Positions 4,991 to 44,450 of a DNA stretch of 48,147 bases are shown piece after piece (the stretch's first letter is position 1; every line of letters starts with the position of its first letter). Location of the stretch: contig DALYDS010000001.1 of NCBI GenBank assembly GCA_031973055.1, positions 1-48,147 of the forward strand, given 5' to 3'. Both the position numbers and the translations under genes were made by a program. Below the pieces are notes generated by a model that saw nothing but the letters and a program-made list of their open reading frames with translations, made no database searches and had not been told where the DNA came from. The stretch comes from a bacterium. GTDB lineage: Bacteria > Patescibacteriota > Gracilibacteria > BD1-5 > JAGOOR01.

Positions 4991-5605
4991 CTAATCCGTT
5001 GTCGCTACTTTGATACCAAGCACCACAAGCGCCCCTCAGAAAAATTTGTTGAAGAATCCCTGAAATCGCTCAAACACACGACGGACACGCGGGATTGTGA
5101 GAACGGTCGCGACAAAACCAAACCAGAGGAATGTCTGTACCACACACCAGACACCTATCGCGAGTTGTATCCACATCGGTGTCGATGGTGAGATGATGAG
5201 TGTAAATGCACTGAGAAAAAAGAGAGTTGCTTTGGGATTCAGAGCATTCGTGAGAAAGCCCATTTTCACCGCCTGAAATGCTGAAATCATATGCTTGTGT
5301 TTGTGGGCATCGATATGTATCGTCGTATGCTTCGCTCTCCATGACTGGATACCGATATAGATGAGATAGAGAGCTCCGAGCCATTTCATGATATTGAAGA
5401 GCATGATAGACTGTGAAATAATCACCGCAATACCAGCTATACAATAGGTCATATGAACAGCGATTCCTCCGCTAAAACCGAGAGCCGTCCAGAGTCCCAT
5501 CTTGCGTGAATACGCGAGACTATTTCGTGCACAGAGGATAAAATCTGGACCAGGACTAATGAGAGCCAGGAGATGAAGAAGTCCTACCGTGATAATAAGA
5601 GACAT
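4991..5605 (-). CDS. LysE/RhtB-family amino-acid exporter
   Basis: MSLIITVGLLHLLALISPGPDF... is a typical LysE N-terminus. The track ORF stops at TGA 5036. Table 25 adds GGALVVLGIKVATTD up to TAG 4991-4993, restoring the usual last transmembrane helix. Confidence 0.8.
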
Positions 5606-5609
5606 AAAA

Positions 5610-8600
5610 TTATTTTGTAAGACTTATGTTAACCACAAAACCTTCATCGAGTTCGACTTCTTTCGCACCTCCTTCATTTTTCATACCAATAGTACAGAGT
5701 GTTTCTTTCTCAATCATACTCTGATGTTTTTCCAGAATCTTACCAAGCATATCATTGTCTGAAGTAAGAGCGAGTTGGAGCCTGTCCATTACTTGGAATC
5801 CGAGTTCTTTTCGAGCGTCCTGAATACCACGAATCATGTCACGAGCGTAGCCCTCAAAGGTAAGTGCTTCGTCGAGCGTTGTATCGAGACCAATGACATA
5901 ACCAGCACTACCAGCAAAGGCGATTGTTGAACCAGATTTTGGTGTGTAAACTGCCTCAAATTCATCGGCTGCGAGAATAACAACTCCATTTGGTGCTTCT
6001 GGGACCGTGAGCTCAAGAGTTCCTTCTGGAGTTAAGTTTCCCTTCCCTGCTTTTGCGTCCGCGATAATCGTTTTCATCCACTGTTTTCTCTCGGTCGCTC
6101 CGATTTTTTTCGCATCTGGAGAATAGGTAATCGTGACGTAGTCTGAGACATCACCTACGCTGTGTATTTCCTTCACGTTTAATTCTTCAGCCAGCGTCTC
6201 ACGTGCACTATCATCGAGAGAGAGTGTTATCGTCGCTGCTCGAAGTGGTTGTCGGACACGGAGTTTCTCACGACCACGAATCGCGAGACCGAGATTCGTG
6301 AGATTTTGGAGGTCTGTCATTTTCTGATTTACGTCGAGATTGATGAGCTTTTTGTTTACTACTGGGAAATCCGTGAGGTGCACTGAATCCGTCGTATTCA
6401 TGAGATTCTGATAGAGATGCTCAGTGATAAATGGACAGATAGGTGCGAGGAGTTTGGTCATCGTGACGAGGACTTCATGAAGTGTCTCGTACGCACTCTT
6501 CTTATCTGCATCGAGTTCACTTCTCCAGAATCGACGACGATTACGTCGGATATACCAGTTATTGAGACCATCGAGGAAGACCATGATAGCATCACAGGTT
6601 TTCTGGAGATCATAAGCGTCCATTGAAATTCTCGTGTCTTGAATCAATGTATGGAGACGAGAAATAATCCAGGTATCGAGTTCGTGAGTTTTTGGAGTTG
6701 AATAATCCGTGAATTCCCATCCGTCGATATTGGCATAAGTGGCAAAGAAGGTGTACGAATTCCAGAGTGGAAGCAATACACGTTTGATTGATTCTTGAAT
6801 ACCTGCTTCTGAGAACGTCATATCTTCGCCCTTCATCAGCGTCCCACCCATGAGGTAAAAACGAATGGCATCTGCACCATATTTCTCAATCGTTTCACGA
6901 GGATCTGGATAATTGCCGAATGATTTACTCATCTTACGTCCATCAGTTCCGTTGATGACTCCTGTCACTGCCACATTTTTGAAGGCTGGTGATCATTTGA
7001 CCATCACACCAATCGCGTGCATCACATAAAACCACGCACGAATCTGCCCCGTGTATTCTGCGATGAAATCCGCTGGGAAACTCGCCTCCATCTTCTCTTG
7101 ATTTTCAAATGGGTAATGCACTTGCGCATACGGCATCGAAGCACTATCCATCCACACATCGAGGACTTCGGGGATGCGACGGAGTGGAGCACCGTGGAGG
7201 ATGACGCCAGTGATAAGTTGGGAATATTCGACATTGAAATGTCCCGCACCATTAATAGTCACACATTTCCCACCTGTTGCCTCTGCGACATTTTTCCCAG
7301 AAGTATGTGGAACACCGGGATCATCTTCACAATTGATAACAATGATTTCGTCGACATGATTTCGTAACTCTTCAAAAGTATAAGTAAATTGTTCTTGTTC
7401 AACTTTTACCAAAGCTCCTCGAGTACTTGCTTCGTATCGAGGTGCAACGAGAATCATTTTTTTGACATGAAGTCAGTGAGAGATGATATATTGTCTCGCT
7501 GTTTTTGCACCCATAGAGTGTGTCACCCACGTATCATAGCTCGCGATATCGAGACCGTCAAAGACCTTTTCCCAATTTTTGTAGTCTACAGCTTCGCCCT
7601 TCTCAAAAAATGGAGCGTCCATATGAATACCTTCTCTTGCAAGAACTTCTTTGGTTTTCTCAAAGAAATCAACAACATTGCCATGTTTATTATATCCATG
7701 AACGCCGAGTACTTTTTTTGGTTTTTCTGATGTTCCTGGGAGAAATACGCGGTCAATATACGGTCTATGGAGATTGATTTCTTTACCGGTATTGTTGTCG
7801 AGATAGAGCGGAATTGCTGTCGCTTTTGATGGAAGAGGTATTCCTTTTCAGAAATATTTTTTGCCAGATAAATGTTCGAGGATGAGTGCTATTTGGTCAG
7901 CATGGCTCACAACAATAACTGTTTTTCCTGGATATTTCTTTGAGATGTCAGTAATAAAATCCTTCATACGGACCAAAATATCATTGGCAGATTCACCACC
8001 TCCTGAAAATCTAAAGTCTCTATCCGTGAGATATTTATCATGTGCCTCGTCGTATTGTGACTGAATTTCTTTACGTATTTTTTGATCCATATCTCCCAAA
8101 AATACTTCTCGCAGACGATCATCATACTCTATATCGAGTTTGCAAAATTGATTGATTATTTCTGCCGTTTCCTGGGTACGTGCAAATGGAGAAGAAAAAA
8201 TAGCATCGATTGATTCTGATGTGAGACTTTCGCCAACTTTTTCCGCATCTGCCTTTCCTTTATCGGTCAGAGGAAGTCGTGGCTTATCACTTCCATCGAT
8301 AATACCGAGCGTATTTTTGAGACTCTCACCATGACGAACAAAGATAAATTTGGTTATCTGCCCAAGTGGTTTATTTCTCTGATACAATTCTTCGCGAGAA
8401 TCAATAACGACACGCTCGCTTCCATCAGTATTTTGCCATACTGGCATCGGCGTTCCCCAAAAACGAGAACGAGAGATACACCAATCTGGAGCAGATTCGA
8501 GAGATTTCAGGAATCGTCCGTGCTTGAAGTGATCTGGGAACCAATTGATAGATTCGTTCTGTGCGATGAGTTCTGATTTAATTCTCTGGATATCGATAAA

Positions 8601-10328
8601 CCATGACTTCTGTGCTTTTTGCATCAGTGGAGTATTGCTTCGAGGACAGTACGGAACGCGGTGCGTTATACCTTCTTTTTTGAAGAGTTTCCCTTCTGTC
8701 TTGAGTCGCTCCGTGATAGGATCGATAGCATCGATGTAGAGTGTACCTTGGTAGTCTGGGACTTGTGCGGTATATTTCCCTGCCTCATCAATCGCAGACG
8801 TGATGAAAATCCCCTCTTGCTTCGCGAGCTGGAAATCCACATCACCAAATTCTGGTGCTTCGTGGGCAATACCAGTACCATCAGTATCGGTGACGAAGTC
8901 GGCGTGGTAGACTTTGAAGTTTTTATCATCAATTTTCCCGACGTAATAATCAAATGGCGGATGATAATATTTACCAACCAAAAATGAACCAGGATACTCG
9001 GTAAGAACAGTAAAATTTTTCCCTTTCATGACTGTTTCAAGACGGTTTTTCGCGACCAAATAACCTTCATCTTCAATTTGCACTAACACATAGGTCAGAT
9101 CATTATGAACCGCAATTGCCATGTGCATCGGTATAGTCCATGGTGTCGTTGTCCATGCGAGCAATGATATATGTTTGAGTTCAGGTAATTTCTTCTCGAT
9201 AGCACGGAGAGCAAGCGCATCATACATCCGACCAAGCTGTTCGGTAATAATATGCTCACCATACTGGAGATAGTATCCATGAACGAGTTCTGGATCGTCT
9301 ACGATTTTCATCCACTGCATCTGAGCGTGTTTTTCTGGTTCTTGAATAGTTGGATTTGATAATAACTCAACTTCGAAATATTCCCCTTGCCACAAAGTAC
9401 GCTGAGTAAAAACTTTTCGATTTCAGAGATGTTTTCTGATGGTTATTTCGACTCAGAGTTCTTCTTTTATTTCTCTTTTGAGAGCCGTTTCTGCAGTTTC
9501 GCCTGCGTCAATTTTGCCACCAGGACACTGCCATGTATTTCAGTGTTTTTTATTCTGGAGCATGAGAACTTCACCATCAGCATTTCGGATAACAGCGAGG
9601 ACATATCGAAGATATCCGTCATCTGTATATTCAAATTTTCATCCCTGCACCTCGTCCTGTTTTGAAGTGTCTTGTGTGAGTGGAAATTTCACGGTAATAG
9701 CTGGATCCTGGACGTCCTGATAGCTGTCATCCATCGCGATTTCAAAGTTTGAAATCGGAGTCGAGAGCTTCCAAGAATACCATGAAACACGCTTTCCTTC
9801 GTAGATATAGCCTTTCTCCCAGATTTGCTTGAAAACCCACATCACTGACTCCATATAGTTCTGATCCATCGTGCGGTATGCATAGTCCATATCGACCCAT
9901 CGACCAATATGATCGATATACCATCCCCACTCAGATGAAGTGTCACGTGTATAATTATAACATTCATCGATAAATCCCTGGATTCCTCCAGCTGATTCCT
10001 CGATTTCTTTGTTTGATTCGAGTCAGAGTTTCTTCTGTACTTTTTGCTCAATAGGAAGTCCGTGACAATCCCATCCCCAGACACGTTCAACGCGCTTTCC
10101 GAGCATCGTTTGATAACGAGGCACGACGTCCTTAATTATCGAAGATAACAAGCTTCCATAATGCGGAGTTCCGGTGATAAATGGAGGACCATCGTAAAAT
10201 CGGTACGGATTCTCAGCTGACCTGGATTCGACTGACTTTTCAAACGTTTTATTTTCCTTCCAGTATTGGAGGATAGATTCTTCGAGTTTTGAGAACTCGG
10301 GTTTTCATTTGGGGAGAGAGAAGGGCAT
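5610..10328 (-). CDS. ileS: isoleucine--tRNA ligase (type 2-like core) carrying three in-frame inserted hydrolase domains; 1572 aa
   Basis: Track fragments 5610-6974, 6993-7457, 7848-9395 and 9639-9890 are all in one frame. The gaps contain only TGA stops; I located at least nine. ATG is at 10326-10328 and TAA at 5610-5612. Core motifs appear in order: PHYGS (HIGH), [87 protein letters not shown]. Confidence 0.9.
7190..7712 (-). other. alpha/beta serine-hydrolase domain (YdeN/RBBP9-like) inserted in IleS between 'LHRPYIDRV' and '[10 protein letters not shown]'
   Basis: [13 protein letters not shown]..., nucleophile elbow THSMGA (Ser at 7515-7517), NCEDDPGVP (Asp), INGAGHF (His). Confidence 0.7.
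7790..8370 (-). other. histidine-phosphatase (phosphoglycerate-mutase-like) domain inserted in IleS after 'WGTPMPVW...SREELYQRN'
   Basis: [14 protein letters not shown] (RHG motif), ...[11 protein letters not shown]..., ...[11 protein letters not shown] (second catalytic His). The normal 'LHRPYID' follows about 30 residues downstream. Confidence 0.75.
9168..9638 (-). other. Nudix hydrolase domain inserted in IleS between 'VKFPL' and '[10 protein letters not shown]'
   Basis: Complete Nudix box [22 protein letters not shown][G]V (GX5EX7REUXEEXGU). Its invariant Gly is encoded by UGA (9453-9455). Confidence 0.8.
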
Positions 10329-12633: not shown

Positions 12634-13188
12634 TTATTTTTTCATTGCGTAAAAACGATTGAAAAACGGAGCAATCGCACACTGTGCGGCAAGTCGGAAT
12701 TGATCACCACGAGAGAGCATCATATCTGTCCACATACCGAAACTACCACAACTATGACTCGTGCCTGCTGGAGCACCCAGAGACTCAATAATCTGGTCTA
12801 TATCGCGCCCCGCCCCATCATGAAGTCACGACATAACTGCCTCTGGAACTGGGATATGACAAGTATATGCATAATGTCATTCACCTTCTCTATCTTCGAT
12901 ATAGACGGTCCCCATAAGCCATGATTCTGGACCAACACTGTCCTTGTAGACTCCTGCTTCCATACCCACAAAAAAATGTGCCTCTGGACAGAGACGACGA
13001 ACTTCATCTACACGGTTTTTTGCACCTACACGTATATCTTCGAGGCTCATCGGCATCTCTGGCACTCATGATGCGACCTTGAAGCCGAGTATCTGCGCTT
13101 CAGTTCATTCAAAATACGGACAACCAGACAGAGCATCTCGAAGTGCCTGAGTTTTTGGATTATTTTTAGTAGAGAGAGCAAAGAGCAT
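12634..13188 (-). CDS. yjjX: inosine/xanthosine triphosphatase (YjjX/DUF84 family non-canonical NTPase)
   Basis: 184-aa table-25 frame with 4 UGA. MLFALSTKNNPKTQALRDAL...VASGVPEMPMSLEDIRVGAKNRVDEVRRLCPEAHFFVGMEAGV is collinear with E. coli YjjX (ESGVPEQPFG..TRAGARNRV..). Confidence 0.7.
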
Positions 13189-17372: not shown

Positions 17373-17855
17373 ATGAATACATTTGTCACTACAACTGATA
17401 AAGACGGTGGAACTCACGAGGTAGCTATTGCTGACCTTGTCTGGAGACCTGCTGCATACGGAATTATTATCCAAGAAGGTAAGATTTTAATGGTGCCACA
17501 ATGGGATGGTTACGACCTCCCTGGTGGTGGTATAGATATCGAAGAATTAGGAGAAAAAGCAGTCGTTCGTGAGGTAAAAGAAGAAACTGGCTTGGACGTC
17601 ATAGTTGATACACTGATAGCTACTCGTGAGAGCTTTTTTACTTTCAGGAAAAAAGGAAAACACACGCACTCTATTGCGTTCTACTATACTGCTCACGTTG
17701 TTGGTGGGGAGCTCTCTGAAGAGGGTTTTGTCGGTGGCGAAAAAGAATATATGCATCTGGCTGAGTGGATACCATTGGAGAAATTCCACGAACTCACGAT
17801 ATATAGCTCGATTGATATCAAGCCAATTATCTTAAGTCTCATCTCTAACACCTAA
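17373..17855 (+). CDS. Nudix hydrolase
   Basis: Nudix box GGGIDIEELGEKAVVREVKEETGLDV. 160-aa ORF ending at TAA. Confidence 0.85.
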   Translation: MNTFVTTTDKDGGTHEVAIADLVWRPAAYGIIIQEGKILMVPQWDGYDLPGGGIDIEELGEKAVVREVKEETGLDVIVDTLIATRESFFTFRKKGKHTHSIAFYYTAHVVGGELSEEGFVGGEKEYMHLAEWIPLEKFHELTIYSSIDIKPIILSLISNT

Positions 17856-24469: not shown

Positions 24470-26200
24470 ATGATATTACCCCTTGGAGAAAATATTGTTG
24501 AAACAAAGAAATGTCGCCTAACAGGCAAAGAGTTTGTGGTGACCGATAGAGATAGGGATTTTATAGATAAAGTCTCGCCTATTTTTTGTGGAAAGAAATA
24601 TGAAATTCCTTCACCCTCACTCTGCCCTGAAGAGAGAATGAAAAGAAGGCTTGCTTTTCGAAATCCAAGAAGTGTTTATCTTAGAAAAAGTGATGCAACT
24701 GGTGAAACAATGTTTAGCCAATATGCTCCCAATAAACCTTATCCTGTATATGATAATGAAACTTTTTACAGTGATACATGGACCCCTAGTACTTTTGGAA
24801 AATTTTTTGACATGAATAAATCCTTTCATGAACAATTTCTCGAACTCAATAATTCAGTCCCTCATTTTGCTCGATCTGTGAGCAATCTCATAAATTCAGA
24901 TTACTGTAGTAGTTGTAATGACCTCAAGGATTGCTATCTTTGCTCTAACGGATGAAACTCAGAAAAGATGATTTACAACAACTGATTTAAGAGATGCTTT
25001 GGATGCATAGACTCAACACTTCTCATTGATTCACGAAATTGCTATATGTGTATAGACAGTGAGAATTGCGATTCGTGCTTCTATTCACAAGACTGTAGTC
25101 ATTGTAGTGAATGTTGGTACTGCGACGAATGCGTTGGGTGTCAGAATTGTTTTAGCTGTTCAAATTTGAGAAATAAACAGTACTGCATAGCAAATAAAAC
25201 TTATGAGAAAACAGAATATTTTAAAAAAATATCGCAAATAAAAAACACAAGCCTAGACATAGCGCATGTTGCAAAAGAGTGGTCTTCCAAGCAAATAAAA
25301 AAAGATTTGCACCTTCTCAAAACAGAAAATTCATTCTGAAACTACCTCGTCAATACCAATAACTGTTATCACTGTTTTGAATGTTCAGAATCACAAAATT
25401 TGAGATACTGCGATACAATTAAAACAGGAAATGATTGTATGGATATCTCATCATTTGGATGGCATCCGGAATGGTCCTATGAGTGCTCGAGTCTTGGACA
25501 TAATGCCAATCATATTTTGTTTTGTTTTTCAGTTCTTCAAGATGTAAAGGATATTTTTTATTCTTCGTACTGCCAAAATAGCTCTGACTGTTTTGGATGT
25601 GTCGGACTTCACTCTCATGAGCATCACTGCATATTCAATAAACCTTATTCCATCGCCGAATACGAACAATTGTGTGGCCACATCATAGACCATATGAGAT
25701 CTACAGGAGAGTGGTGAGAGTTCTTTCCTCATGAACTATCACCCTTTGGTTACAATGAGACAGTAGCTCAAGAATACTTCCCTCTGACAGAATCTGAAGT
25801 GAAGTCTCGTGGATGGAATTGGTACAATGCACCAGAGAAGTCCTTTGACGGTGGGACCCTCCAACCTCTCAGCATATCCGAGTACGATGAGAAGACTGTC
25901 TGATTCGAAGCAGCTCAGAAAAACATCGATACTCTCCTCGCATGAGTAGTGAAGTGTGAGATAACAGGAAAACCATTTAAGATTATCAAACAAGAACTCG
26001 CTTTCTACATAGAACACCATCTCCCTATTCCTACCAAACATCCAGACCAGAGACACAAAGAAAGAATGGATATGAGAAATCCACGGACACTCTTCGAACG
26101 TACGTGTGCTGAATGTCACAAAGATATCATAACTACCTATACACCAGACAGACCAGAGAGAGTAGTATGTGAAGAGTGTTATCGTAAGTTGGTTTATTAA
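24470..26200 (+). CDS. cysteine-rich repeat protein (576 aa) flanked by two homologous zinc-ribbon-like modules
   Basis: Track ORFs 24470, 25046, 25400 and 25949 are all in one frame, joined by 6 UGA. The centre is dense in C-x2-C / C-x5-C repeats (CYMCIDSENCDSCFYSQDCSHCSECWYCDECVGCQNCFSCSN). N-terminal KCRLTGKEFVV...PEERMKRRLAFRNPRSVY and C-terminal KCEITGKPFKI...PDQRHKERMDMRNPRTLFERTCAECHKDI...VCEECY are duplicated modules. Confidence 0.7.
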
Positions 26201-40574: not shown

Positions 40575-43500
40575 TTATTCGCTCTCAGAAGTATTTTTGA
40601 CAAGATCTGAGAAGACTTCAACCTCTCCCATACGTCCTGCATACTCATCACCACGGTTATCGACTTCTCCTTGTTCGAGGAGTTCGAGCTTGAGACCGAG
40701 AGCTTGGAGCTCTTTGATCATCACGTGGAATGATTCTGGAACACTCGGACGTTTGATTGGTTCATTTTTGACAATAGCACGATATGCCTGTGTACGTCCT
40801 GTGATGTCATCTGACTTAATCGTGAGAATTTCTTGGAGGATATTTGCTGCACCGTAACCCTGAATAGCCCAACATTCCATTTCTCCGAATCTCTGACCTC
40901 CATTCTGAGCTTTACCTCCGAGTGGTTGCTGAGTAATCATAGAGTAAGGACCAACAGCACGGGCATGAATTTTATCTTCGACGAGATGGTGGAGTTTGAG
41001 CATGTAGACTGTACCAAGCATTGTTTTTTCTGCGAATGGTTCTCCAGTTTGTCCATCATAGAGTTGGACTTTACCAGATGTATCCATGCCTGCTTTTTTC
41101 ATGAGGTCATGAATAGTATCTATATTAATACCGTTGAGAACTGGTGTTGCCACTTTGATACCGAGACGACGAGCAGCTTCACCGATATGAGCCTCGAGTA
41201 CTTGTCCGATATTCATACGAGAGACGACACCAAGAGGATTGAGAATGATGTCGACTGGTTGACCATCTGCTGTATGAGGCATATCTTCTGGTGGGACGAT
41301 ACGAGCGACGATACCTTTGTTACCATGTCGACCCGCCATCTTGTCACCAACTTCGATTTTTCGAGTTTGAGCCACGTAGACTTTTACTTGTTGGAAAACA
41401 CCTGTTGCGAGATTATCACCTTCTTCTTTTCGTAAAATCTGAATATCGATAACCTTACCTCCTGAACCTGATGGGAGATAGAGAGAAGAGTCTTTGACGT
41501 CTTTTGATTTATCACCAAAGATTGCTCGGAGAAGGCGTTCTTCTGGAGAGAGTTCTTGTTCACCTTTTGGTGTGATTTTACCGACGAGGATATCACCACC
41601 TTTGACGAAAGCACCAATACGAACAATACCATTTTCATCGAGGTCTTTGAGTTTCGCACTTGAGACATTTGGGATGTCACTGGTAGTGCTCTCTGGTCAG
41701 AGTTTTGTCTCACGAACATCAAGTGTATATTCGTTAATAGATACATTTGTGAAATAATCTTGTTCTACGAGTCGTGAGTTGAGGATGACCGCATCTTCAA
41801 AGTTATATCCATTCCATGGCATATAGGCAACACGGAGATTTTGACCGAGAGCGAGTTCACCTTGTTCCATAGAGTGTCCATCAGCCAAGATATCACCAGC
41901 ACGGAATTCTTGTCCATGAGAGACACGAGGATATTGGTGGATTTGCATGTCGTGATTTGAACGCTCAAATGTGAGGAGTTCGTAGGTTCGTTTTTCACCA
42001 TTATTGTACATAACAGTGATATGTTTCGCATCGACACCGACAACTTTTCCGTCAAAATCAGCCTGAATACAGTAACCACTTTTTTCACCAAATATTTTTT
42101 CATTACCAGTACCTACAATAGGCGCAGACGAACGAACGAGAGGAACAGCCTGACGCATCATGTTTGATCCCATTTCCGCACGAGTCGCATCATCATGTTC
42201 CAAGAATGGAATAAGTGATGTTGTCTCAGAAACGATTTGTTTTGGAGAGATATCAATATGAGTAATATCACGAACATAGACGATAGTTGCTTCACTGTTT
42301 TGTCGAGCACCGAGACGTGTCTCAGCGAAATTACCAAATATATCAATTGGAGAATTGGCTTCAGCGATAGTGAAATCACGTTCTACGTAGGCATCGACAT
42401 ATTCGTACGCATCAGTGAGATGTCCACGAACGAGGACTTCTTTTTCTTTGTATGATTTTTTGAGAAGTTCTGCGTGTTCTTTTTTCATGAGAACTTTTTC
42501 TGGTACGATGACTTTTCCTTTTTCATCGACGATATCCTCGAGTGTAATACGATTCACTGCTGAGAGTCCGTCATTTGCTACGAAATGGCTAATCTTGCGA
42601 TATGGAGTTTGTATGAAACCATACTGATCAACACGAGCAAATGATGAGAAATGAAGAACGAGACCGATATTTGGACCTTCTGGAGTAGCAATAGGACAGA
42701 TACGACCATATTGTGTCGGATGTACGTCTCGAACTTCGAATGATGCACGTTCACGTGTGAGACCTCCAGGACCCATCGCAGAAATACGACGCTTATGGGC
42801 CAACTCTGAGAGAGGATTGCTCTGATCCATGAATTGTGAGAGTTGTGAACTACTGAAGAATTCTTTTACTACTGCTTCAATAGGTCGGTGATTGATAAAG
42901 CTTCGTGCTGTTGATTCATCGAGATTAATGACGGTCATACGATCTTTCGCAATTCGCTCCATACGAGCGAGACCAACGAGAAATTTCTCTTGTACGAGCT
43001 CTCCAACTGATCGGATACGACGATTATCGAGTCGATCAATATCATCAGGTGTACAGCTCGGATCATCCATCTGGAGCTTCATGAGATAACGAAGTGTTTC
43101 TACGATATCATCCGTTGAGAGAAAACGACCATCACCTTCGTATGTACCATTGACGTGAAGTTTTCGAGACATTTTGAGACGTGCGACTTCACCGAGGTCA
43201 AATCGTTTTGCATTGTAAAAAGTCGTACGGAAAAGATCCTCAACTCGCTCATCAGTACCGAGATCTCCTGGTCGGATAAGCTTATAGAGTGCGTGCCATG
43301 CTTCTACCTGGTTTTTTGTTTTATCTTTATCGAGTGTTGGTTGGATAAATTTCGCGAGGATATCTTTATCGTCTTTGAATGCTTTGATAATAGCAGCATC
43401 TGATTCAACGCCGAATGCTCGGAGAAGTGTCGTCGCTGGCATTTTTCGTTTCTTGTCGATACGAACTGTGATCATACCTCGACGATCTGTCGAGAATTCG

Positions 43501-44450
43501 AGCCATGCACCTTTTTTTGGTTTGATTTTCGCACTGTAGACACCAGCATCTACTTCAAAAGCGATACCGTCGGCCTTGATAATTTGATGAACGACAACTC
43601 GTTCAACTCCATTCACGATAAATGTTCCCTTCTCTGTCATGAGAGGTATACCGCCCATAAATACTGTATCTTCTTTAATTTCACCTGTTTCCTTATTCAA
43701 CATTTGGAGTTTGACACGGAGGTATGATTCGTAGTTGAGATTTTTTCGACGACATTCTTTGCTCGTGTAACGAGGTGCCTCGAGCTCCATACCTTTGAAG
43801 TGGATTTCTACACGCTCTTCAGAAAAGTCTGAAATAGGAAACACACTCTCGAGAGCCTCATTAATACCGTGCTCAATAAATGATCGGTAAGAATCAAGCT
43901 GTGCTGCGATAAGCTCAGGCATTTCGATAATAGCACGGTCTTCTGTAAAAAAGTGACGTCCAGATCGGACATAGAGAGCACCGTGTGTTGCTTTTTCGAG
44001 ACGTGGAGTATGTGTAATGGCTGGCACTGGAGAGAGTGAGAGTTGTTTGCGAGGCTCTTTTACTTTTTTTACGACTTCTGGTTTTTTAGATTTTTTTGGA
44101 GCTGGAGTTATTTTTTCTGCTTTTTCCGCAATTACTTTCTTAGGAGTCACCTTTTTTGCGACTTCTTTTTTCTTTGGAGCTTCTTTTTTTGGAGCTGGCT
44201 TTTTTTTGGAGTTCACAGGAGATTTTTTAGGAGATTTAGTTGATTTTGAGTTTACCTTTTTTGCGACTTCTTTTTTCTTTGGAGTTGGCTTCTTTGGGAG
44301 AACCTTCTTTACTGGTTTTTTTGCAATTACTTTCTTAGGAGTCACCTTTTTTGCGACTTCTTTTTTCTTTGGAGTTGGTTTCTTCACAACCTTTGCAGAC
44401 ACTTTACCTCCTGCTTTCTTGGCAGGCTTGGTGAGTTTTTTCGCATTCAT
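40575..44450 (-). CDS. rpoB: DNA-directed RNA polymerase subunit beta with a roughly 175-aa Lys-rich repetitive N-terminal extension (1291 aa)
   Basis: Track fragments 40575-41375 and 41697-44477 are in one frame. The junction RETKL[G][11 protein letters not shown] aligns with E. coli RDTKLGPEEIT. Also [14 protein letters not shown] and [11 protein letters not shown]-type [22 protein letters not shown]. Start taken at ATG 44448-44450 ([12 protein letters not shown]...). Confidence 0.95.
44128..44384 (-). repeat. in-frame direct DNA repeats encoding the [16 protein letters not shown] units of the RpoB N-terminal extension
   Basis: An identical 52-nt unit gcaattactttcttaggagtcaccttttttgcgacttcttttttctttggag occurs at 44128-44179 and 44323-44374. 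A third, partial copy (accttttttgcgacttcttttttctttggagttgg) is at 44254-44288. Confidence 0.85.

Follow-up and report, generated by a model that had tools for sequence, protein, structure and literature searches.

The DNA analysed here, referred to below as the window, is a stretch of 48,147 nt from a bacterium of the Gracilibacteria (assembly GCA_031973055.1, contig DALYDS010000001.1), and all nucleotide positions given are positions within it. The minus strand of the window carries the gene ileS, which encodes an isoleucyl-tRNA synthetase (IleRS) predicted to hold three complete hydrolase domains inside its catalytic body. These domains, termed cassettes A, B and C, had been proposed by an earlier examination of the letters and open reading frames (ORFs) alone, here called the sequence-only reading. 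The borders of the inserts were set by alignment of the predicted protein (the query) to a solved type-2 IleRS (IleRS2), that of Priestia megaterium (8C8V), and to an insert-free relative. The predicted organization of the gene is as follows, with amino acid (aa) numbers referring to the query.

5610-10328, minus strand: ileS, type-2 isoleucyl-tRNA synthetase with three inserted domains; start codon ATG at 10326-10328, stop codon TAA at 5610-5612
9678-10328, minus strand: core segment 1, aa 1-217; first Rossmann half with PHYGS (HIGH-type) at aa 55, ending in VKFPL; aligns to 8C8V 12-212
9165-9674, minus strand: cassette A, aa 219-388; MutT-like Nudix domain in the N-terminal hinge of CP1, after VKFPL; four TGA(Gly) codons
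8385-9164, minus strand: core segment 2, aa 389-648; CP1 editing domain and connective region; aligns to 8C8V 219-474
7773-8384, minus strand: cassette B, aa 649-852; histidine phosphatase of branch 1 (PspA/PhoE/CobC-like); one TGA codon
7728-7772, minus strand: short IleRS link, aa 853-867; the NLHRPYID strand, which lies between B and C and corresponds to ELHKPYVDD of 8C8V
7191-7727, minus strand: cassette C, aa 868-1046; YdeN/RBBP9-family alpha/beta serine hydrolase at the site of the zinc hairpin; one TGA codon
5613-7190, minus strand: core segment 3, aa 1047-1572; second Rossmann half with KMSKS at aa 1132, anticodon-binding domain and C-terminal DUF5915; aligns to 8C8V 505-1001

The gene consists of 1573 codons counting the TAA stop, that is, 1572 sense codons in one frame. 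Under genetic code table 11 it would contain nine internal stops, all of them TGA (codons 8, 102, 230, 263, 292, 302, 827, 952, and 1112), and in-frame TAA or TAG codons were absent. When TGA was read as sense, the ORF content of the 48-kb window (ORFs of at least 100 aa) rose from 18,009 to 45,812 residues; a far smaller gain was obtained when TAA or TAG was made sense instead. Codons 102 (KKLGLES) and 292 (a Gly of the Nudix box) fall on informative conserved columns, in which G, or W in the case of calls made with table 4, was found in 90% of the rows of relatives. Because the informative TGA positions lie on Gly columns in relatives, the alignment supports the reading of the ileS TGA codons as Gly (genetic code 25). 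No tRNA gene was found in the window, and tRNA-Gly(UCA) therefore contributes nothing to this argument. In the databases, a product of 154 aa (P0125) is identical to aa 957-1110 of the query, and the deposited calls appear to cut ileS at TGA; many other relatives were translated with table 4 and show W at conserved Gly positions.

The core of the query has the properties of a type-2 IleRS. The whole protein scored 805.7 bits against TIGR00392, the ileS equivalog model (cut-off, 621.4), and Pfam matches above the gathering scores were obtained with tRNA-synt_1 (391 bits), Anticodon_1 (103 bits), and DUF5915 (PF19302, 94 bits), the last being located at the C-terminus, where it is the domain typical of type-2 IleRS. 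The closest solved structure was P. megaterium IleRS2 (8C8V, E = 5e-210), and type-1 IleRS structures were far behind (8C9E, E = 2e-81; 1FFY, E = 1e-76). Residues 14-218, 389-648, and 1047-1544 of the query were collinear, as three blocks, with residues 12-212, 219-474, and 505-1001 of 8C8V. The class I motifs PHYGS (aa 55), DWCISRSR (aa 615), and KMSKS (aa 1132) and the CP1 editing motifs WTTTPWT (aa 392), GTGIAHEAP (aa 484), and FGDVDF (aa 494) were all present. Across 72 relatives, K1132, M1133, S1134, and K1135 were invariant, and so were the CP1 residues H489, A491, P492, and D498, in proteins with cassettes as well as in those without. The NCBIfam models of the mupirocin-resistance enzymes MupA and MupB gave 644 and 614 bits with the query, below their cut-off of 1900.

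Cassette A matched NUDIX (PF00293) at aa 241-342 with 66 bits (gathering score, 21.1), and its Nudix box fits GX5EX7REUXEEXGU exactly. The best matches in the PDB were generic, namely 4DYW (E = 2e-9) and a series of MutT/NUDIX, NudG, MutT, and RppH structures (E = 1e-9 to 1e-6), and the NCBIfam MutT model was matched with 46.8 bits, below its cut-off of 97.9. The Nudix box was intact in 30 of the 33 cassettes found at this site. The window also has a stand-alone Nudix hydrolase gene at 17373-17855 (plus strand; PF00293, 59 bits); as a source of cassette A it was rejected, with 33% identity over just 57 aa near the Nudix box. A gene for an ITPase-like NTPase (PF01931) is located at 12634-13188 (minus strand), and together with the stand-alone Nudix gene it indicates that the genome encodes separate nucleotide house-cleaning enzymes too.

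Cassette B matched His_Phos_1 (PF00300) at aa 662-823 with 135 bits (gathering score, 21.7). Its nearest structures were the phosphoserine phosphatase PspA (4IJ5, E = 1e-17) and PhoE (1H2E), and alignment to these two located the whole catalytic set: the RHG motif (FVRHGES), an Arg, the Glu (LREVFLGD), and the distal His (VVSHADQ). In relatives, the Arg-His dyad was present in essentially all phosphatase cassettes.

Cassette C matched Ser_hydrolase (PF06821) at aa 935-1034 with 34.1 bits (cut-off, 22). Similarity to RBBP9 in sequence was weak (E = 0.015), and the Ser, Asp, and His of the motifs HSMGA, EDDPG, and GAGHF aligned with S75, D138, and H165 of that enzyme. This triad was kept in 20 to 21 of the 21 hydrolase cassettes, and in a set of 25 cassettes the conservation of Ser, Asp, and His was 90% or higher. 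Structure models of two close relatives stood in for the query. In an AlphaFold 2 (AF2) model of the IleS fragment P0121, whose cassette is 82% identical to cassette C, the predicted local distance difference test (pLDDT) score was about 90 over the cassette, and Foldseek placed this predicted fold with Bacillus subtilis YdeN (1UXO; template-modelling (TM) score 0.78, root-mean-square deviation 3.0 Å) and RBBP9 (TM score 0.76-0.82). The 1187-residue model of P0117, an IleRS with Nudix and histidine phosphatase cassettes, had a mean pLDDT of 84 and a predicted TM score of 0.78; both cassettes were predicted with confidence to be folded, around an intact IleRS core. The possibility that any of the inserts is an intein or another self-splicing element was ruled out, as no Hint or intein family was detected with Pfam and the junctions are without the required residues.

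Taken together, the alignments make it nearly certain that the query is a complete IleRS of type 2 in a single polypeptide, with intact synthetic and CP1 editing motifs and with three hydrolase domains carried in surface loops; cassettes B and C flank the NLHRPYID strand, which follows the WGTPMPVW motif downstream. In most respects this anatomy agrees with the sequence-only reading, which had described one uninterrupted frame of 1572 codons free of TAA and TAG (the internal stops are only TGA, and no frame breaks were seen), a synthetase scaffold that is full and collinear (as the three-block match and the motifs bear out), and a protein roughly 500 residues longer than a normal type-2 IleRS (about 540 aa beyond the insert-free relatives of 1027-1032 aa). 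Each of the three proposed families, PF00293, PF00300, and PF06821, scored above its Pfam gathering score, and the insert borders obtained here lie close to those proposed. The statement that cassette C takes the place of the Cys zinc knuckle of type-2 IleRS needs to be narrowed. P. megaterium IleRS2 does have TCPVCSG between HKPYVDD and KRTPEV, where the hairpin pairs with ECEGC after WGTPLNVW, but the insert-free IleRS of Gracilibacteria are already without those Cys residues, having lost both Cys pairs.

To place the query among its relatives, 5.8 billion proteins were searched; the best 120 matches were aligned to P0055, an insert-free protein of 1027 aa, and architectures were counted over 119. 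The matches were IleRS of Gracilibacteria, Absconditabacteria/SR1, and related Candidate Phyla Radiation (CPR) bacteria, and they showed all kinds of architecture. At least one large insert was present in 77 of the 119 and none in 42, and 19 different insert architectures were distinguished. The large inserts fell at five fixed loop sites, which are given here with their approximate positions in P0055.

Site A, about 212-226: Nudix; GNAT in two proteins
Site B, about 470-503: histidine phosphatase
Site C, about 505-522: serine hydrolase
Site D, about 540-550: GNAT; in one case a Y1-transposase-like domain
Site F, about 670-685: a second, very common site of phosphatases, vacant in the query

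The combination of cassettes at sites A, B, and C that is seen in the query recurred in just P0002 and P0006, and one protein, P0022 (2143 aa), had three phosphatases, a hydrolase, and a GNAT domain. Where the records of relatives name a host, it is Candidatus Gracilibacteria or Candidatus Peribacteria, and one of the sequences is from a closed chromosome of 1.05 Mb.

Other kinds of inserts were observed in the same family. In P0083, a Y1 (IS200/IS605-type) transposase-like domain (PF01797 in a precomputed Pfam list) lies in frame at site D (aa about 769-984), flanked by two phosphatase cassettes. Short low-complexity inserts of 25-45 aa, also in frame, were found in P0006, P0009, P0018, P0022, P0023, P0030, P0033, P0068, and others at minor sites (P0055 about 250-262, 295-310, 578-585, 779-783, and 900), with up to three in one protein and none in the query. 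They share motifs, for example SPLLKEG...NPQSLRDSSFxKG and SLKEKGLGDEV, and look like a short repeat element inserted in frame, comparable to the Rickettsia palindromic elements.

The IleRS with inserts is not a one-off misassembly, because relatives of this kind recur in dozens of independent assemblies including the closed chromosome. This recurrence also speaks against the misassembly that the sequence-only reading had named as a refuting outcome. Its remark that no described aminoacyl-tRNA synthetase of such architecture was known needs a correction, in that the architecture is not unique to the query.

An artefact, either a chimeric assembly or adjacent genes merged by reading through TGA, might be considered for a gene of this kind, since public calls fragment ileS (as in the 154-aa P0125) and many contigs of metagenome-assembled genomes (MAGs) end inside it. 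Several observations make this explanation extremely improbable. The sole internal stops are TGA codons on columns conserved as Gly; the inserts split the IleRS core, which would be non-functional unless translated through them; the same types of junction are seen in the independent assemblies just mentioned; and purifying selection, described below, spans the junctions. Nor was an excess of internal signals detected in ileS: promoter-like sites numbered 12 (11.6 expected) and terminator-like sites 7 (4.4 ± 2.0 expected). Expression of the inserts as separate proteins, which would have spoken against the fusion, is not indicated by these counts.

Comparison of close relatives revealed that the cassettes and the core have different histories. 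With the inserts excised, the query core was 87-92% identical to those of P0001-P0006 and about 60% identical to those of all other relatives. Within this tight clade, cassette identity was 27-40% at site A (the query compared with the six), 39-66% at site B, and 36-37% at site C. The nearest cassettes were found elsewhere: for the Nudix cassette (54-58% identity) in proteins whose cores are 45-61% identical to that of the query, and for the hydrolase cassette (39-41%) in proteins whose cores are 59-60% identical. Replacement of one cassette only was also seen, as P0001 and P0004 are 97% identical in core and Nudix cassette and 43% identical in their phosphatases.

The same was observed for relative loci. 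Amino acid identity between locus L001 and the query, segment by segment, was as follows.

Core segment 1: 97%
Nudix cassette: 98%
Core segment 2: 97%
Phosphatase cassette: 47%
Hydrolase cassette: 37%
Core segment 3: 90%

At the DNA level (blastn), the query and L001 were 90% identical over 10470-8322 and 87% identical over 7202-4992, into the downstream LysE-type gene, and similarity was undetectable between 8322 and 7202 except in a link of 118 nt. In the case of L002, similarity drops out over the Nudix cassette as well, stopping at 9682 and resuming at 9161. The stretch of cassette B had no DNA similarity to L001, L002, or L005, and in L005, which is without cassettes B and C, a stretch of 419 aa of the query has a counterpart of only about 50 aa. 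Another combination was provided by L027, in which the link (100% aa identity), core segment 3 (98%), and the hydrolase cassette (82%) are close to those of the query and the phosphatase is 37% identical. Even a single MAG bin (CAZLKD01) contained both states, a Nudix cassette being present in L015 and absent from L018; core segment 1 of both is 97-98% identical to that of the query. The downstream gene, a LysE-type amino acid exporter at 4991-5605 (minus strand), starts 4 bp past the ileS stop and is syntenic in L001, L002, and L005.

Among the partial relative loci (L004 and L007-L020), ileS runs off the end of the contig in 14 of 15, and several of these ends are at or near cassette borders (query residues about 657, 688-692, 1025, and 1049). 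This suggests that polymorphism of the cassettes between strains breaks short-read assemblies at ileS. A "hypervariable gene" mentioned in a paper on Gracilibacteria BD1-5 was checked and proved to be a gene with PTD repeats, unrelated to ileS.

From these comparisons it is highly probable that the inserts are exchangeable cassettes drawn from a pool common to the lineage, with close relatives carrying another cassette lineage or none. The simplest mechanism would be homologous recombination in the conserved flanks of the IleRS core between alleles with different cassettes, because the borders are sharp at the DNA level between alleles that are otherwise close.

The cassettes differ from the core in codon composition. 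GC content at third codon positions (GC3) was 0.29-0.33 in the cassettes (A, 0.33; B, 0.29) and 0.42-0.47 in the core segments, and TGA(Gly) codons occur in frame in every cassette. The lower GC3 is consistent with a separate history within genomes in which TGA is recoded. Ratios of nonsynonymous to synonymous substitution (dN/dS) were taken from pairs of the same cassette lineage only, as the values of 0.35-0.47 obtained between lineages are not meaningful with dS saturated. For the Nudix cassette of the window and L001 (98% aa identity), dN/dS was 0.028 at a dS of 0.36; core segment 1 compared with the same locus gave 0.03 and core segment 3 gave 0.05-0.10. The hydrolase cassettes of the window and L027 gave 0.15 at a dS of 0.82. 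For the phosphatase cassette and its nearest relative, that of P0001 (66% aa identity), the proportions of nonsynonymous and synonymous differences (pN and pS) were 0.21 and 0.76, the latter being saturated. As judged from these sequence pairs, the cassettes are under purifying selection, the Nudix cassette as strongly as the core.

The view that the inserts are non-catalytic, serving as spacers or binding surfaces or being relics on the way to deletion, can be weighed at this point. Cassettes are dispensable in many relatives, and a few deviate from the motif consensus, such as the 3 of 33 Nudix boxes that are not intact. These observations would fit such a view; against it stand the catalytic residues, which are intact in the query and kept in nearly all other cassettes, the confidently predicted folds of the cassettes of relatives, and dN/dS values of 0.03-0.15. 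It is considered very unlikely, and the earlier statement that the catalytic residues look intact and the inserts are unlikely to be decayed relics is upheld by the residue-level alignments to solved enzymes and by the signs of purifying selection.

A possible source was found for the hydrolase cassette. In a HMMER scan of 1.84 billion representative proteins with this cassette, just 62 relatives were retrieved; a word-index search, which is an insensitive method, gave 7 matches, all of them table-11 fragments of IleS genes. Two of the relatives, P0146 (174 aa, L029:2715-3239) and P0150 (182 aa, L030:26-574), are encoded by free-standing genes in genomes with TGA as Gly. Both genes start with ATG and end with TAA, are preceded by stops in the same frame, and have no IleS sequence in their vicinity; that of P0146 directly follows a gene for a SET-domain protein. 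With particular IleRS cassettes the two proteins share 45-48% identity, a level also seen between the cassettes themselves. It is plausible on this basis that free-standing genes of the TGA-recoded lineage were the likely source of the hydrolase cassettes.

The same HMMER scan also retrieved leucyl-tRNA synthetases (LeuRS) with hydrolase domains. In P0149, two tandem Ser_hydrolase domains lie between MQRNWIGKSEG and TTRPDTIFG, the equivalent of site A of IleRS, and a further Nudix domain follows the editing domain. A single hydrolase was found at the equivalent of site A in P0163 and past KMSKS, the equivalent of site F, in P0161. When P0149 was used as the query of a search, most of the best 120 LeuRS matches carried PF00293 and/or PF06821, and the matches were named Pacearchaeota, Woesearchaeota, Nanoarchaeota, "archaeon" or Patescibacteria. 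P0302, labelled "HAD-IA family hydrolase" in its source, is in fact a LeuRS with a HAD insert. Further LeuRS in the insert-bearing set include P0175 and P0191, and some of the source annotations read "alpha/beta fold hydrolase". Among the matches of the hydrolase subfamily in this exhaustive scan, IleRS and LeuRS were the only recognisable multi-domain hosts.

As to function, we propose that the cassettes may be active hydrolases stationed beside the synthetase, where their substrates would be molecules connected with aminoacylation. For the serine hydrolase these would be aminoacyl esters or aminoacyl-adenylates, whose cleavage would amount to an extra deacylation or proofreading for hydrophobic amino acids. 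Substrates of the Nudix domain would be by-products of the nucleoside-diphosphate-X type, for example diadenosine tetraphosphate (Ap4A) or adenylates, and the phosphatase would take a phosphomonoester off a nucleotide or the 3' end of a tRNA. CP1 itself is an inserted hydrolytic (deacylase) domain and offers a precedent for hydrolases added in cis. From published biochemistry, RBBP9 is known to cleave bonds to single hydrophobic amino acids and to need a free alpha-amine, and it is the enzyme that activates valacyclovir, an L-valyl ester (Shenoy et al. 2020, as cited in PMC7730578). An enzyme with the RBBP9 fold inside the synthetases for Ile and Leu readily suggests itself as a candidate for a further hydrolase of aminoacyl esters or adenylates, and among the three cassettes the serine hydrolase is the best lead. 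Compounds of the nucleoside-diphosphate-X type are hydrolysed by Nudix enzymes; Ap4A, one of them, is a known by-product of synthetases. The deacylase activity suggested in the sequence-only reading gains some support from the biochemistry of RBBP9; its functional ideas as a whole remain speculative. Also in favour of coupling to aminoacylation are the limitation of the multi-domain hosts of the hydrolase subfamily to IleRS and LeuRS and the occurrence of inserts of the Nudix, Ser_hydrolase, and HAD kinds in the LeuRS of DPANN archaea and of Patescibacteria.

Several observations weigh against this proposal. The CP1 editing residues are intact with and without cassettes, and there is no lost function to replace; compensation by the hydrolase for a loss of CP1 editing was ruled out on the same ground. 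Glu108, the alpha-amine anchor of RBBP9, showed no clear conservation in the hydrolase cassettes. Phosphatase cassettes also occur near the anticodon-binding domain, a long way from where the acceptor end lies, and the GNAT and Y1-transposase-like inserts at other sites would fit a scaffold that is simply permissive equally well. Every cassette is dispensable among relatives. In addition, the particular combination of A, B, and C in the window could be an in-silico join of strains that occur together, as 780 nt of conserved core lie between A and B; the pairing of B and C is safe, because just 45 nt separates them. In view of these points, our estimate for a functional coupling of the cassettes to aminoacylation is tentative and falls somewhat short of an even chance.

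The permissive scaffold is the basis of another explanation, namely that house-cleaning enzymes without any link to aminoacylation have hitch-hiked into a class Ia scaffold that tolerates insertions and is essential and constitutively expressed. In genomes of about 1 Mb, fusion would secure the expression of small enzymes, and the turnover would be largely neutral gain, loss, and recombination. Aminoacyl-tRNA synthetases have been noted as favoured hosts of domain insertion (PMC13114784), and the loops in question also accept unrelated sequences (GNAT, Y1-transposase-like, and short low-complexity peptides). Presence and absence vary among very close strains, and with 42 of the 119 relatives free of inserts no cassette is essential; the stand-alone Nudix and ITPase-like genes and the lower GC3 of the cassettes also fit hitch-hiking. 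It accounts less well for the recurrence of the same few hydrolase families in two class Ia editing synthetases of two unrelated ultra-small lineages, for the restriction of the hydrolase subfamily to these two among recognisable multi-domain hosts, and for purifying selection on the Nudix cassette that equals that on the core. We regard hitch-hiking as rather unlikely, though as the one to be taken most seriously among the alternatives.

Immunity or repair in cis was also considered. Here the cassettes would protect the synthetase against ester inhibitors of the mupirocin type, adenylate mimics or toxins of the tRNA 3' end, such as agents that pyrophosphorylate, phosphorylate or acylate it, and their turnover would reflect an arms race. 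The pattern is indeed like that of a conflict locus, with presence and absence at the strain level, cassette replacement in near-identical alleles, and many architectures, and the bonds that the three enzymes attack (carboxyl ester, pyrophosphate, and phosphomonoester) would match the ways in which, going by known toxin and antibiotic chemistry, an acceptor end may be blocked or an adenylate mimic inactivated. Both IleRS and LeuRS are targets of natural-product inhibitors (PMC9437257 and PMC5059758). On the other hand, each cassette lineage appears to be under purifying rather than diversifying selection, no toxin, antitoxin or resistance genes adjoin ileS in the window, and the GNAT cassettes and the phosphatases near the anticodon-binding domain are left unexplained. 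This explanation seems improbable to us.

A broader version of the proposal would see IleRS of Gracilibacteria-type CPR bacteria and LeuRS of DPANN and Patescibacteria as platforms for a set of hydrolase cassettes, exchanged horizontally and turned over quickly, that together form an in-cis system of proofreading and of repair or immunity. Wrong or blocked aminoacyl esters would be deacylated, and nucleotides, or tRNA with a damaged 3' end, would be relieved of pyrophosphate or phosphate. So general a system seems unlikely. For the locus as a whole, the best explanation in our judgement, held with moderate confidence, is an IleRS with exchangeable hydrolase cassettes that act beside the synthetase.

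Two further ORFs of the window were noted. The N-terminus of the rpoB product (ORF 40575-44450), encoded at 44000-44450 on the minus strand, has a histone-H1-like extension of about 150 aa that contains repeats and is rich in Lys, Pro, and Ala, which precedes the first Pfam RNA-polymerase domain (starting at aa 180). On the plus strand, 24470-26200 encodes a protein of 576 aa packed with CxxC and CxC motifs, for which no Pfam family was found at E of 1e-5 or below.

In a literature search whose coverage of subscription journals was thin, no published description of IleRS or LeuRS with inserts of the Nudix, histidine phosphatase, HAD or RBBP9 type was found, and none of cassette exchange in a synthetase. 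The insert-bearing IleRS is real, is found widely in databases, and has apparently not been described before. Few enzymes are as conserved or as well studied as the aminoacyl-tRNA synthetases, and their gain of new domains has been seen mainly as a matter of terminal appendages in eukaryotes; the present case is a bacterial IleRS that holds three complete hydrolases inside its catalytic body, and these behave as interchangeable units among near-identical strains. Should aminoacyl esters, adenylates or tRNA ends prove to be the substrates of the cassettes, translational proofreading or protection would be known in a new form that can be tested directly; if the platform interpretation were right, translational quality control or defence would gain a new layer peculiar to ultra-small episymbionts. 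If the cassettes are not coupled to aminoacylation, the family would still provide a remarkable natural experiment on how domains are inserted and modules recombined in an essential gene. There are practical consequences too. Gene calling with table 11 shatters ileS, "alpha/beta fold hydrolase" and "HAD-IA family hydrolase" are among the automated names, and polymorphism between strains breaks MAG assemblies at a universal marker gene.

Among known systems, P. megaterium IleRS2 (8C8U/8C8V) shares with the query the whole core, including the HIGH-type and KMSKS motifs, the CP1 motifs, the anticodon-binding domain, and DUF5915. The difference lies in two loops: in the CP1 hinge, about 6 residues give way in the query to a Nudix cassette of 170 aa, and a stretch of about 30 residues that holds the CxxC zinc hairpin gives way to about 400 aa with cassettes B and C. 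An IleRS that incorporates a complete enzyme domain has a precedent among curated families, the NCBIfam model NF040702 (ileS_w_GNAT). The query scored 259.8 bits against it (cut-off, 1999) and has no GNAT match in Pfam; the GNAT-bearing relatives from Gracilibacteria and SR1, with about 248 bits, are also below the cut-off, and the model therefore describes another lineage. The LeuRS of DPANN archaea and Patescibacteria described above carry the same domain families at equivalent class Ia positions, namely the hinges of CP1 and the region past KMSKS, in another synthetase and in other lineages, and they too are apparently undescribed.

RBBP9 and B. subtilis YdeN (PF06821) resemble cassette C in predicted fold, with TM scores of 0.76-0.82, and in the aligned Ser/Asp/His triad. 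They differ in sequence (about 18-20% identity) and in that cassette C is embedded in a synthetase and does not clearly keep the Glu108 anchor. Trans-editing deacylases (AlaX, YbaK/ProX, and DTD) and the modules accreted by eukaryotic synthetases (GST, WHEP, and EMAPII-like) are, as is generally known, likewise accessory modules tied to a synthetase, but they have unrelated folds and are terminal or separate rather than internal; to our knowledge, exchange of cassettes has not been reported for any of them. A parallel in position is given by the idiosyncratic insertions of class Ia synthetases (CP1, zinc hairpins, and LeuRS-specific domains), which occupy the same permissive loops between the Rossmann halves. 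Those insertions are ancient, fixed, and specific to a family, whereas the IleRS cassettes appear to be complete enzymes of independent families that vary between strains and are exchanged.

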